Shown piece by piece: positions 4,564 to 7,749 of a stretch of DNA of 64,000 nucleotides. The stretch is from Escherichia phage FL31. Within the stretch, counting starts at the first letter, position 1, and each line of letters begins with the position of its first letter. A program made the position numbers and the translations under genes. Location: sequence record PP400782; one strand, 5' to 3'. Below the pieces are notes generated by a model. It was not told the origin of the DNA. It saw nothing but the letters and a program-made list of their open reading frames with translations, and ran no database searches.

Positions 4564-5520
4564 TTATTTGAAAGGTTTTACCATATGGAAATTTTGTTTG
4601 AAACGTTTGACGTAATCGTCATGTCCTAAGCTTTGGTACATACTTACTACTTTGCTGTAGTTTTCCCAGGCGTATTCACGGAACCAACCGGAGGTGATGC
4701 TTGTACAGACCTTTTCCAATGCCGTCATAAAACTGGCTTCAGGGTTAATTTTAAAGTCATTAGGAATCTGAGAACGTTCTAATGCTAATACACATGATTC
4801 TTCATATACACCGGCCAATTTGACCATTTCCGGTAATGATTCGAACTTCTCGCGTGAGGTCATGACTTCAGAACCATCTTTCATGTAAAATGTATACGCT
4901 GGACGGTCTGTTAGTGCAATGGCTTCATGAATAGTATCATGGTCATATGTATAGATGTCATCTTTAAAGAATGCGCTTTTAGAAGTGTCAAGAACCGGGT
5001 GAGCATAATTCAAGGTTTCTTTCTGGCGTTTCAGCATAATTTCAGTAAGTTCATCGTTCAGTGTAACACCTTTACCACGAAGATACTGAATATGGTTCAT
5101 AGTCTTTAAAAAGAATGGATTATTTTTCTTGAAACGATGAGACATCTTAATTGCAAGACACATCTCAGGAGTTGCCCAGTAAAACCCGTTAAAACGATCT
5201 TTAGTCAAATTTTTCTTGGCGTATTTTAAAAGGTCATAAGAAGACGTGAAATCTTCAGGAGTGAGTTCACCGACTAATTCACGGACATTAGTGATTGCCG
5301 GAACAATATATGCTTCAAAATGAGTTTCGCGTCCATTATGGAAGCATTTGAAAACTTGGACATCAGGGTTATCTTGGTGAACATATACACCCATCATTTG
5401 ATTTTTGAATGCATTCCAAGAACCTTGGTCCGCAATAAAGTCCCAATCACTATTTTTAATAGCGCTAGAATCAATAAGACCGTGATAGTGAAGTGCACGA
5501 GAACCAATAACTAACATCAT
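4564..5520 (-). CDS. Hypothetical protein (318 aa), possible nucleotidyltransferase-like N-terminus
   Basis: ATG 5518-5520; N-terminal IGSRALHYHG...DWDF loosely resembles G[GS]...DxD; no confident family. Confidence 0.55.
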   Translation of the reverse strand: MMLVIGSRALHYHGLIDSSAIKNSDWDFIADQGSWNAFKNQMMGVYVHQDNPDVQVFKCFHNGRETHFEAYIVPAITNVRELVGELTPEDFTSSYDLLKYAKKNLTKDRFNGFYWATPEMCLAIKMSHRFKKNNPFFLKTMNHIQYLRGKGVTLNDELTEIMLKRQKETLNYAHPVLDTSKSAFFKDDIYTYDHDTIHEAIALTDRPAYTFYMKDGSEVMTSREKFESLPEMVKLAGVYEESCVLALERSQIPNDFKINPEASFMTALEKVCTSITSGWFREYAWENYSKVVSMYQSLGHDDYVKRFKQNFHMVKPFK

Positions 5521-5548: not shown

Positions 5549-5800
5549 TTAAATTTCACGACATGCGATATTATATTCATCCCAGAGGTCATCGTGTGAA
5601 GCCTCTACTAATGGAACGATTGTACCATTTATGTCTTCATTATAAGGGCAAATTGTACAATGTGCATCTTCGAATCGGATGCCTTTGTGTTCAGATTTTT
5701 TATAACGCATATCGAATATCTTTGCAAACTTTTCACGAGTAATGGTTTTACCAACCACTTCGGTTCCGATACTTTCGTAATAAATCATTGTGGACTCCAT
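5549..5800 (-). CDS. Hypothetical protein (83 aa)
   Basis: ATG 5798-5800; palindromic early promoter upstream (5817-5846). Confidence 0.5.
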   Translation of the reverse strand: MESTMIYYESIGTEVVGKTITREKFAKIFDMRYKKSEHKGIRFEDAHCTICPYNEDINGTIVPLVEASHDDLWDEYNIACREI

Positions 5801-5808
5801 TTAATTTG

Positions 5809-5846
5809 ATAGGACTACTATAACATAGCCCTATCTTGTTGTAAAC
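5809..5846 (-). promoter_or_regulatory. Early promoter with stem-loop, same family
   Basis: ATAGGACT..AGCCCTAT arms (one mismatch) around TATAGT; GTTTAC at 5841-5846. Confidence 0.5.
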
Positions 5847-5851
5847 TGTTT

Positions 5852-6049
5852 TTAGCAAGAATAACTAGATGATACCCAGCCTTGAACAGTAATACTATTG
5901 TGGGATAATGAGATCGCGTCCTGGAGATTCAGACCTGCGTTATCTTCAATCCATAATGTAACTTCTTCGCGTTCTTCTGTTGCAATTTGGAACAGGTTTT
6001 CTAGAGCAGCTACTGCGGTACGTACAGCACAATCTAATTCACGAGACAT
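5852..6049 (-). CDS. Small acidic protein, paralogue 1 of tandem triplet ending WVSSSYSC
   Basis: 65 aa; ATG 6047-6049 with RBS TAAGGAAACC; C-terminal GWVSSSYSC shared with two upstream paralogues. Confidence 0.5.
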   Translation of the reverse strand: MSRELDCAVRTAVAALENLFQIATEEREEVTLWIEDNAGLNLQDAISLSHNSITVQGWVSSSYSC

Positions 6050-6058
6050 ATGGTTTCC

Positions 6059-6331
6059 TTAGCAAGTGTGAGAAGATGCAACCCAACCACCAGTTTCGAG
6101 GCTCAGGTTGTAGTCATATTGGTAAACGTCCGCCCATTCAGCATAGCCGTTTTTTGTACAACGTTCAAGATCGGCTTTAAGATGTCCGGGTGAATGATAG
6201 GTTCCACCCATACCATAAGCTGGGTACAAGTTGAATGTTGTGTTTTGTTTATCAGCAATTTCTTTGGCAGCCTCAATAGCTGCATAGATTTTTGCTACAG
6301 CTTCGGCCAGTTCGGTTTGTTCTTTAGACAT
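6059..6331 (-). CDS. Small acidic protein, paralogue 2 of tandem triplet ending WVASSHTC
   Basis: 90 aa; ATG 6329-6331 with RBS TAAGGAATC; Ala-rich N-terminal helix; C-terminus GGWVASSHTC. Confidence 0.55.
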   Translation of the reverse strand: MSKEQTELAEAVAKIYAAIEAAKEIADKQNTTFNLYPAYGMGGTYHSPGHLKADLERCTKNGYAEWADVYQYDYNLSLETGGWVASSHTC

Positions 6332-6340
6332 AATGATTCC

Positions 6341-6646
6341 TTAGCACAACGCAGAAGACGAAACCCAAGCACCTTCAGTAATAACGTATCCATTACCTTC
6401 ACGCTTAACATCGCCGCCATTATTTTCAATTTCATCTTTCATCCACTGGGATACGATTTCACCCTTAGGATAATAAGTACGACCGCTACCATAATCACCT
6501 ACAGAAAATGATACGGCATATTGGTCTGCGATCTTTGTTGCTTCTTCTTCGATACGTTCAGCTTGATTCAGAAGTTTATAAATTGCATCTGAAGCGGATT
6601 TGGCATCATTAAACTCTGGTACTTTAATTTCAATAATCTTACTCAT
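6341..6646 (-). CDS. Small acidic protein, paralogue 3 of tandem triplet ending WVSSSALC
   Basis: 101 aa; ATG 6644-6646; early promoter GTTTAC-N18-TATAAT at 6706-6735; C-terminus GAWVSSSALC. Confidence 0.55.
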   Translation of the reverse strand: MSKIIEIKVPEFNDAKSASDAIYKLLNQAERIEEEATKIADQYAVSFSVGDYGSGRTYYPKGEIVSQWMKDEIENNGGDVKREGNGYVITEGAWVSSSALC

Positions 6647-6744
6647 TTTCTACATTCCTTAATAAAGTTTTCGATTGTTTCATTTTCACGTCTAGCTAGG
6701 AGTTCATTATAACTAATCATTTGAGAAGCGTAAACAGCATAATT

Positions 6745-7137
6745 TCAGTTGAGGCTTTTGCATCTTATTTCCTTAACGAATTCCATAGCTTCTTCATATT
6801 CATACTTTTTAACAGCTTCATCATACTGAGCTTGGGCTTTTGCGCACTGAACTTTCCATTCTCTTAATCTGGCTCTGTGATGACGTCCTTGGTACCAATA
6901 TCCCATCCAGTTAATAGGCATTAATAAAAACGGTATAATAAGTGGTGCGACGAACATTAATGAAAATGCTGCATCAGACGATATAACTTCACTAGAATCT
7001 AAAACAGCTCCTATAATCATAAAGATTAAAAATGCTAAAGCTAAAATAGGGCCAAATAATACTTCATTTGGGATTAATTTACGCTTGTATTCATACGCCC
7101 AGGGCTTAATTGGCATGTATAGGGTTGGCTTTGACAT
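6745..7137 (-). CDS. Hypothetical membrane protein (2 TM helices, basic C-terminal tail)
   Basis: Trimmed to ATG 7135-7137 (MSKPTLYM...); ORF-track start is TTG. Confidence 0.45.
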   Translation of the reverse strand: MSKPTLYMPIKPWAYEYKRKLIPNEVLFGPILALAFLIFMIIGAVLDSSEVISSDAAFSLMFVAPLIIPFLLMPINWMGYWYQGRHHRARLREWKVQCAKAQAQYDEAVKKYEYEEAMEFVKEIRCKSLN

Positions 7138-7731: not shown

Positions 7732-7749
7732 GGAGGACCGGAGTCCTCC
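7732..7749 (-). terminator. Hairpin plus T-run after ORF 7758-8351
   Basis: Minus strand GGAGGAC-TCCG-GTCCTCC then TTTTGG. Confidence 0.5.

Follow-up and report, generated by a model that had tools for sequence, protein, structure and literature searches.

Among enzymes of the DNA polymerase β (pol-β) fold, GlnE, GlnD, and MntA, the last acting on HepT, nucleotidylate side-chain hydroxyls of proteins, and in these precedents the nucleoside monophosphate (NMP) is placed on a small partner encoded next door. Two further described systems resemble parts of the locus reported here: MenA1, the partner of the toxin MenT1, is a helical hairpin with a dispensable C-terminus (PMC10435456), and RlaP (PF10127) is an RNA-ligase-associated pol-β nucleotidyltransferase of phages and bacteria that repairs RNA 3' ends (PMC12776372, PMC7824862). 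We analyzed a 64,000-nucleotide (nt) stretch of Escherichia phage FL31 (record PP400782; hereafter the window), which, at 97-98% identity to RB69 and other Mosigvirus genomes, is assigned to an RB69-like Mosigvirus. At positions 5852-6646 on the minus strand, three tandem open reading frames (ORF1 to ORF3) encode small proteins with nearly the same C-terminal tail, ending in Cys at the stop codon, and two genes downstream on the same strand lies the gene of a putative enzyme with the domains DUF7277 and DUF7275 (all coordinates are in Table 1). Such an enzyme gene, together with the one to six tail-bearing genes ahead of it, forms a conserved module that is probably expressed early. We rate this module as lying outside the known kinds of system, with a function that we infer only from sequence, predicted structure, and gene neighborhood.

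The linkage between the tail genes and the enzyme gene is very strong, and it is strand- and order-specific across unrelated phage groups. In eight of eight loci anchored on the tail, an enzyme homolog lies within ~2 kb downstream on the same strand, and all three further full-length enzyme loci, from Pseudomonas Otagovirus, Stenotrophomonas Menderavirus, and Acinetobacter phages, have adjoining tail genes. When ten diverse loci were compared all against all, the enzyme and the tail family were the only families common to all ten, and the next best family occurred in four. We then anchored the survey on the enzyme, using 80 loci from IMG/VR and 5 from genome collections (85 loci). Of the tail ORFs found here, 193 share the strand of the enzyme and lie upstream of it, 2 lie downstream, and the opposite strand has none; the six-frame ORF backgrounds of these regions are 1902, 1840, and 5537, respectively. 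The nearest tail gene is separated from the enzyme start by a median of 314 nt, and, with short-tail variants counted, 78 of the 84 evaluable enzyme loci contain at least one tail gene, the copy number ranging from one to six per enzyme. Only 11 of the 85 have RNA-repair genes (rnlA or pseT homologs) at a distance of up to 5 kb. Two distant members of the tail family, found by exact-sequence look-up on a 361-kb contig and on a short metagenomic contig, also adjoin or lie near an enzyme-type protein.

The layout varies in individual phages. Pseudomonas phage PHB09 (2812-4817 of its locus, L009) has up to five tail genes ahead of the enzyme, with bodies of 90-150 amino acids and mixed endings, namely long (WNASSQSC, WDSSSMYC), short (WDSSRC), and degenerate (WAASNHNC). 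In Stenotrophomonas phage Ps15 (4986-6960 of L010), the enzyme comes first and is followed by two or three Cys-tail genes, one with the degenerate ending SNWERSWC. Four IMG/VR loci (L057, L058, L060, and L083) form a clade whose enzyme is 43-53% identical to that of the window and in which no Cys-tail gene was detectable within 5 kb; the position directly upstream of the enzyme is instead taken by a conserved ORF of 179 amino acids, and the L060 enzyme ORF is shortened to 252 amino acids.

The tail defines a family far larger than the triplet of the window. An exhaustive HMMER profile search over 1.84 billion representatives (cut-off E ≤ 1e-3) matched 618 cluster representatives, nearly all of 65-150 amino acids, and the match extends to the final residue. 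Among 145 new representatives inspected, 136 have the exact Cys ending and the remainder have one extra residue or a near-variant, while 14 diverse aligned sequences all keep W, S, S, and the terminal C. An earlier sequence-only reading of this DNA had named the disappearance of the tail from an alignment of true orthologs as a result that would overturn it; with distant relatives aligned, the tail stands out more strongly instead, so that this refutation fails. The consensus of the last ten residues, tabulated on motif-filtered sequences, is G-G-W-(V/Q/I)-(S/A/P)-S-S-x-x-C. A short variant, W-x-S-S-x-C, is also present, and the Ser three residues ahead of the terminal Cys is common to long and short tails. 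The terminal Cys is the sole Cys in 105 of 197 members, so that no internal Cys pair is possible in these. The proteins are acidic, with a median isoelectric point (pI) of 4.5, and their bodies diverge strongly once the tail is removed, ORF1 keeping essentially the tail alone. To the eye, the N-terminal extensions of longer members resemble helices or coiled coils, and no additional domain is obvious. Relatives found by tblastn come from Dhakavirus, Karamvirus, and T4-like phages of Klebsiella, Serratia, Aeromonas, and Yersinia, as well as from Phapecoctavirus and Justusliebigvirus. The family is a large, phage-restricted group of small acidic proteins defined by the ending G-W-x-[S/A/P]-S-S-x-x-Cys-COOH, which is among the most rigid C-terminal signatures found. 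We also noticed a fourth Cys-tail gene in phage JS98 (8781-8999 of L005), of ~69 amino acids and ending in FWFSSSMSC, which lies between orf127 and orf126 and is absent from the JS98 annotation.

None of the known families matched the small proteins well enough to count them as members. Scans of ORF1 to ORF3 with Pfam, NCBIfam, and PADLOC gave no meaningful match; the lone PADLOC match is a partial one of ORF3 to PDC-S49 (12.5 bits, E 0.01). Profile searches of the Protein Data Bank (PDB) sequences with the alignments of the small proteins and of the enzyme were without match. The AlphaFold (AF2) model of ORF3, with a mean predicted local distance difference test (pLDDT) score of 90.4, consists of a long N-terminal helix and a small sheet, with the tail forming the last strand and a short helix. 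This model has no solved structural neighbor, and a Foldseek search against BFVD returned only uncharacterized family members.

The proposed partner is, as modeled, a protein of nucleotidyltransferase fold with intact catalytic-type residues. A Pfam scan of the 318-residue protein at E ≤ 1 yielded DUF7275, DUF7277, and a chance IZUMO match only. Its structure model (pLDDT 87.7) has an N-terminal nucleotidyltransferase fold of the pol-β type followed by a strongly conserved helical C-terminal domain, and its best structural neighbors are the toxins MenT1, MenT3, and MenT4. Motifs I (G-G/S) and II (D-x-D) of the MenT/AbiEii toxins are present. Across 25 diverse homologs, G6-S7, D25-x-D27, and E69 are invariant, as are H194-D195-x-x-H198, C243, C272, and many other residues. 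No Pfam match to DUF1814 (AbiEii) was obtained, and an identification as RlaP was rejected, given the lack of a PF10127 match and a weak link to RNA-ligase genes. The enzyme belongs to a known superfamily and to no characterized family. It appears essentially confined to phages: in 185,579 species genomes (one genome per species) only five matches were found, all on contigs of metagenome-assembled genomes (MAGs). These five sole 'cellular' matches (L096-L100) come from contigs attributed to Saccharibacteria, Bacteriovoracales, or an unnamed bacterium; one contig is 167 kb long. The contigs also carry Cys-tail genes and resemble phage contigs that ended up in MAGs through binning.

Both partners are missing from T4. 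In six-frame searches of the whole T4 genome, the best match of the tail family was tk.1 (E 0.007), which has no tail motif, and the best match of the enzyme had an E of 1.4, i.e., nothing; no T4 ORF ends in the tail motif. In T4, e.2 directly neighbors e.3, and no comparable block intervenes. With this search result and this gene order, we rejected the possibility that ORF1 to ORF3 are homologs of T4 e.x genes, in line with the earlier reading, which did not recognize the family from T4. T4 does carry nrdC.11 (7436-8446 of L103), annotated as a nucleotidyltransferase; it does not match the hidden Markov model (HMM) of the window enzyme, and an nrdC.11 homolog lies near the enzyme in only 1 of the 85 loci.

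ORF1 to ORF3 behave as genes under constraint. Their proteins are 95-100% identical within Mosigvirus, and comparisons with close relatives gave synonymous to non-synonymous codon counts of 6:1, 4:0, and 10:1 for ORF1, 3:2, 5:1, and 10:3 for ORF2, and 3:0 and 8:0 for ORF3. Because synonymous differences dominate, the three are expressed, constrained genes under purifying selection. The lengths, strand, tails, and codons described in the sequence-only reading are exactly as it gave them, and so is its assignment of a ribosome-binding site to each ORF: an AAGGA(A) sequence lies 6-8 nt ahead of each ATG. All three tails directly abut a TAA stop, and both 9-nt junctions read TGC TAA GGA A, so that the stop codon overlaps the ribosome-binding site of the following gene. 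The two junctions are 75% identical over 48 nt, and their design suggests that translation of neighboring ORFs may be coupled.

The shared ending is conserved as protein. At the DNA level the tails share only 63-73% identity over 30 nt, and conservation is therefore at the protein level, as had been claimed; the tail codons read TCA TCT AGT in ORF1, GCA TCT TCT in ORF2, and TCG TCT TCT in ORF3. A recent DNA duplication or gene conversion behind the common tail was rejected on the same grounds, the low DNA identity and the differing Ser codons. The claim that the three are paralogs is supported, clearly for two of them and more weakly for the third. ORF2 and ORF3, both of phrog_899, are clearly paralogous by their similarity (BLASTP E 2e-6 over 73 residues), and their bodies follow a pattern of N-terminal helix, ADxxGxxF strand, and YG(M/S)GGTYYP loop. 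ORF1 lacks the YGxGGTYYP segment. Its match to a family HMM built without ORF1-like sequences is confined to the last 15 residues (E 0.04), and a profile-profile comparison of the tail-less bodies gave an E of 0.055, neither of which is significant. Single-linkage BLAST of tail-less bodies, which is weak evidence, joins 175 of 201 tail-bearing ORFs, the ORF1 type included. ORF1 may therefore be regarded as a tail-sharing member of the array whose body is either very divergent or truncated, and homology of its body to the others is weakly supported by these comparisons. Similarly, an Ala/Glu-rich N-terminal helix common to all three, as had been suggested, is plausible, with 9 of 23 identities by eye in this stretch and a helix at residues 15-43 of the ORF3 model, but for ORF1 it falls below statistical significance.

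Single copies of the array are broken in some records. RB69ORF138c and RB69ORF139c are one Cys-tail gene broken by a 1-nt indel in the RB69 record (4840-5146 of L001), and P0012 of phage vB_Eco_mar005P1 is an ORF2 homolog whose C-terminal third is out of frame, so that the tail is lost. Either single copies can be broken, or these frameshifts are sequencing errors. Given such occasional breakage, and the large differences among paralogs from genus to genus, some redundancy among them is likely.

To account for the module, we propose that the tail is the element recognized by the enzyme and that the variable bodies would give each paralog its own role. The enzyme would transfer an NMP onto the hydroxyl of a tail serine beside the terminal Cys, and this nucleotidylation could switch on, switch off, or arm several small effectors together. 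A constant tag, diversified bodies, and a variable copy number ahead of one enzyme gene lead us to expect several clients of one processing enzyme, and nucleotidylation of a tail serine is preferred because enzymes of the superfamily transfer NMPs to hydroxyls, those of protein side chains included. The joint absence of both partners from T4 counts for the partnership as well. The suggestion of a shared binding, modification, or tagging function in the sequence-only reading fits these data. Its other suggestion, that the triplet is a diversifying array typical of counter-defense genes, so far finds no support: the proteins are nearly identical within Mosigvirus and under purifying selection, and they gave no meaningful match among the defense systems of PADLOC. 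The decisive context, the enzyme gene downstream, had escaped that reading.

Taken as a whole, with module, tail recognition, and likely serine nucleotidylation all drawn from sequence, predicted structure, and gene neighborhood, this explanation has a slightly better than even chance of being correct in our judgment. Its parts differ in strength. We are fairly confident of a functional partnership between the enzyme and the tail-bearing proteins; whether the latter serve it as substrates or instead as regulators or adaptors is an even call; and nucleotidylation of serine specifically is a tentative assignment. Several observations weigh against the proposal. The proteins closest to the enzyme in structure have tRNA 3' ends or small molecules as their targets rather than proteins, and the C-terminal helical domain of the enzyme, although the most conserved part, has no convincing match. 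In the ORF3 model the tail lies within the fold (strand 93-96, helix 97-100, pLDDT ~86), which is less typical of an enzyme substrate. This placement of the tail and the targets of those structural relatives count against every model that makes the small proteins substrates. Six of the 84 enzyme loci (L036, L097, and the L057/L058/L060/L083 clade) have no detectable tail gene, the weak homologs that match only through the C-terminal domain, DUF7275, in Vibrio, Streptomyces, Gordonia, and Brevibacillus phages likewise lack one, and in phage Ps15 the order is reversed.

A bolder form of the same proposal would make W-x-S-S-S-x-x-Cys-COOH a portable tag on small effectors that is chemically converted by a phage-specific two-domain nucleotidyltransferase. 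Conversion could yield a stable Ser-O-nucleotide or, if the nucleotide is then eliminated, a dehydroalanine or a thioether ring with the terminal Cys, i.e., the logic of ribosomally synthesized and post-translationally modified peptides (RiPPs) applied to folded proteins. We consider this a long shot; if true, several host-directed proteins would be armed or switched at once.

The main rival to tail modification is that the small proteins are antitoxin-like regulators of the MenA1 kind. The enzyme would then be a MenT/AbiEii-like tRNA nucleotidyltransferase, acting on host tRNAs or in tRNA 3'-end repair, and the small proteins would bind it, their tail reaching into or close to the active site, and so inhibit it, set its timing, or redirect it. 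The structural neighbors of the enzyme, MenT1, MenT3, and MenT4, point in this direction, and MenT1 is neutralized by a 68-residue protein encoded upstream, in the same order and size class (PMC10435456). An acidic character such as the median pI noted above is expected of nucleic-acid mimics, the tail is structured in the ORF3 model, and tRNA and RNA-repair genes occur in the wider neighborhood of some loci. However, MenA1 acts through its central helix and can dispense with its C-terminus (PMC10435456), whereas the C-terminus is the only invariant part here. A single inhibitor would suffice, yet loci hold up to six paralogs with divergent bodies. Moreover, the enzyme does not match the AbiEii/DUF1814 model of Pfam, the small-protein profile retrieved no MenA1 chain from the PDB, and a translation-blocking toxin would be an odd thing for lytic phages to conserve broadly. 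We therefore regard regulation of this kind as unlikely, while keeping it ahead of the alternatives that follow.

It is also conceivable that the Cys-tail proteins act alone on host targets, for example with the terminal thiol and carboxylate ligating the metal of a host enzyme or with oligomers sharing a metal or cluster, and that their adjacency to the enzyme reflects a shared early-gene neighborhood or joint transfer. The region looks early and has T4-early-like promoter matches (by consensus only), small acidic proteins of this sort resemble many host-takeover proteins, copies have been lost to frameshift (RB69 ORF3 and the ORF2 variant P0012), suggesting dispensability, and a few enzyme loci lack tail genes. 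Nevertheless, the linkage persists in Straboviridae, Stephanstirmvirinae, Otagovirus, Menderavirus, and jumbo-phage contigs where no other neighboring gene is shared, T4 lacks both partners together, and mere co-residence is insufficient to explain a strict same-strand and almost always upstream placement (193 : 2 : 0). Independent action is therefore rather improbable.

Less probable still is a RiPP-like maturation of the tail, in which the enzyme nucleotidylates the Ser at -3, its C-terminal domain eliminates the nucleotide to leave dehydroalanine, and the terminal Cys adds to form a thioether (lanthionine-type) ring, the tandem genes being precursors of one maturase. Ser-x-x-Cys-COOH is indeed common to long and short tails, and its i, i+3 spacing is that of lanthionine rings and of the C-terminal aminovinyl-cysteine (AviCys) of the epidermin type, a resemblance of motifs only. 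The terminal Cys is usually the sole Cys, and tandem precursor-like genes upstream of a single two-domain enzyme are the usual RiPP layout. On the other hand, dehydration of Ser through O-nucleotidylation has no known precedent, none of the seven neighboring window proteins scanned falls in a known family of lanthipeptide dehydratases, cyclases, or decarboxylases, the bodies, at 60-150 amino acids, are folded proteins rather than typical leader peptides, and the C-terminal domain of the enzyme has no recognizable lyase fold.

Finally, that ORF1 to ORF3 are chance ORFs or annotation artefacts with a coincidental ending, as their shortness and the lack of significant similarity of the ORF1 body to ORF2 and ORF3 might hint, is already refuted by hundreds of homologs that keep the exact terminus, by purifying selection, a ribosome-binding site for each and a confident structure model, and by the motif ending no other ORF of the window (all six-frame ORFs) or of T4.

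The features of the locus are collected in Table 1. The 83-residue ORF between the triplet and the enzyme gene is kept only in close relatives and is not among the families common to diverse loci, and its membership of the module is uncertain. The two promoter-like sites listed belong to a total of 19, which is not above the shuffled expectation of 14.1 +/- 4.4. Upstream of ORF3 the window lacks 250 bp of e.3 that are present in RB69 (6647-6746 of the window against 5236-5485 of the RB69 locus L001), and this deletion leaves a gap of ~100 nt between ORF3 and the e.4-like ORF. G2469, LF82-4, and moha align to the window in one piece and thus appear to share the deletion. A perfect GC-rich hairpin (GGAGGAC-CGGA-GTCCTCC, 7732-7749), which separates the e.5-like from the e.6-like ORF, scored as terminator-like on both strands.

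Table 1 Features of the Cys-tail gene triplet and its surroundings in the window.
Feature	Position	Strand	Description
ORF3	6341-6646	minus	101 amino acids; = RB69ORF138c+139c; YGSGRTYYP motif; tail GAWVSSSALC-stop; phrog_899 E 1e-22; family HMM E 8e-22
ORF2	6059-6331	minus	90 amino acids; = RB69ORF137c; YGMGGTYH motif; tail GGWVASSHTC-stop; phrog_899 E 5e-19; family HMM E 2e-25
ORF1	5852-6049	minus	65 amino acids; = RB69ORF136c; without the Gly-rich middle motif; tail QGWVSSSYSC-stop; phrog_4882 E 8e-37
Tail-coding DNA including stop	5852-5881 (ORF1), 6059-6088 (ORF2), 6341-6370 (ORF3)	minus	Direct-repeat family, 63-73% DNA identity
ORF3/ORF2 junction, 9 nt	6332-6340	minus	Same overlap of stop and ribosome-binding site as ORF2/ORF1
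ORF2/ORF1 junction, 9 nt	6050-6058	minus	TAA stop overlaps AAGGAA ribosome-binding site (sequence read directly)
Enzyme gene, DUF7277+DUF7275	4564-5520	minus	318 amino acids; = RB69ORF134c; phrog_2141
83-amino-acid ORF	5549-5800	minus	= RB69ORF135c; phrog_3723; between triplet and enzyme gene
Promoter-like site (G)TTTACG-17-TATAAT	6706-6734	minus	Upstream of ORF3, inside the remnant of the partly deleted e.3; consensus match only
Promoter-like site TTTACA-17-TATAGT with upstream TG	5817-5845	minus	Directly after the ORF1 stop, before the 83-amino-acid ORF; consensus match only

The tail family and DUF7275/DUF7277 are absent from the searchable literature, and literature searches on the gene and domain names gave nothing that ties the proteins to anti-defense. 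In PHROGs, phrog_899, phrog_4882, and phrog_2141 are all listed as of unknown function. Many small early phage genes lack an assigned function, and one group of them now appears, from its sequences, as a family of hundreds of sequence clusters with a near-obligate genomic partner that resembles an active enzyme. The module is carried by RB69-like and JS98-like coliphages, by phages of Klebsiella, Enterobacter, Aeromonas, Acinetobacter, Pseudomonas, and Stenotrophomonas, and by jumbo phages. Modification of the tail by the enzyme, if real, would add a new type to the protein modifications encoded by phages, and the tail would be a new recognition tag that is portable; should the small proteins instead regulate a tRNA nucleotidyltransferase of the MenT kind, phages would turn out to possess, under regulation, a form of an enzyme known until now as a bacterial toxin. 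Both possibilities are open to testing with RB69-type phages in E. coli.

PHROG 899 and 4882 hold ORF1 to ORF3 and record no function, no connection between the two, no tail, and no link to phrog_2141. RlaP is, like the window enzyme, a phage-encoded member of the pol-β superfamily of similar size, and some window-enzyme loci likewise lie near Rnl1/PNK genes, but RNA-repair genes were found within 5 kb in 11 of 85 loci and Cys-tail genes in 78 of 84, and the RlaP papers name no Cys-tailed partner (PMC12776372, PMC7824862). With lanthipeptides and AviCys peptides of the epidermin type the Cys tail shares the terminal S-x-x-C-COOH spacing, a resemblance that we treat as a lead only, and with RiPP clusters the module shares tandem precursor-like genes ahead of one modifying enzyme and a constant recognition element joined to a variable remainder. 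Unlike in lanthipeptide clusters, no enzyme of the LanB, LanM, LanKC, or LanD type is present among the seven window proteins scanned, and unlike RiPP precursors, the Cys-tail proteins are folded and acidic, with the tail rather than a leader conserved.

The closest layout is that of MenAT1 of Mycobacterium tuberculosis (MenT1 with the 68-residue MenA1), in which a small protein is likewise encoded directly upstream of a nucleotidyltransferase of the pol-β fold, and the GS and DxD motifs of MenT/AbiEii are kept in the window enzyme. The differences are nevertheless considerable. MenAT is bacterial and chromosomal, whereas the window module is phage-restricted; MenT/AbiEii proteins are DUF1814, a model that does not match the window enzyme; and the latter has an extra, highly conserved helical domain of 200 amino acids (DUF7275). 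Instead of one MenA1 there are one to six paralogs per enzyme, which have no detected similarity to MenA1 in sequence or structure, and the exact C-terminus, dispensable in MenA1, is their invariant feature. HepT-MntA (a type VII toxin-antitoxin system), GlnD-PII, and GlnE-glutamine synthetase provide pol-β-fold precedents for the mechanism proposed here, the placing of an NMP on a side-chain hydroxyl of a partner protein; neither the Pfam scan nor the PDB profile searches revealed a sequence relationship to them. These enzymes modify a Tyr in a loop of one specific partner, whereas the candidate acceptor here is a Ser in a tail that is common to several paralogs.

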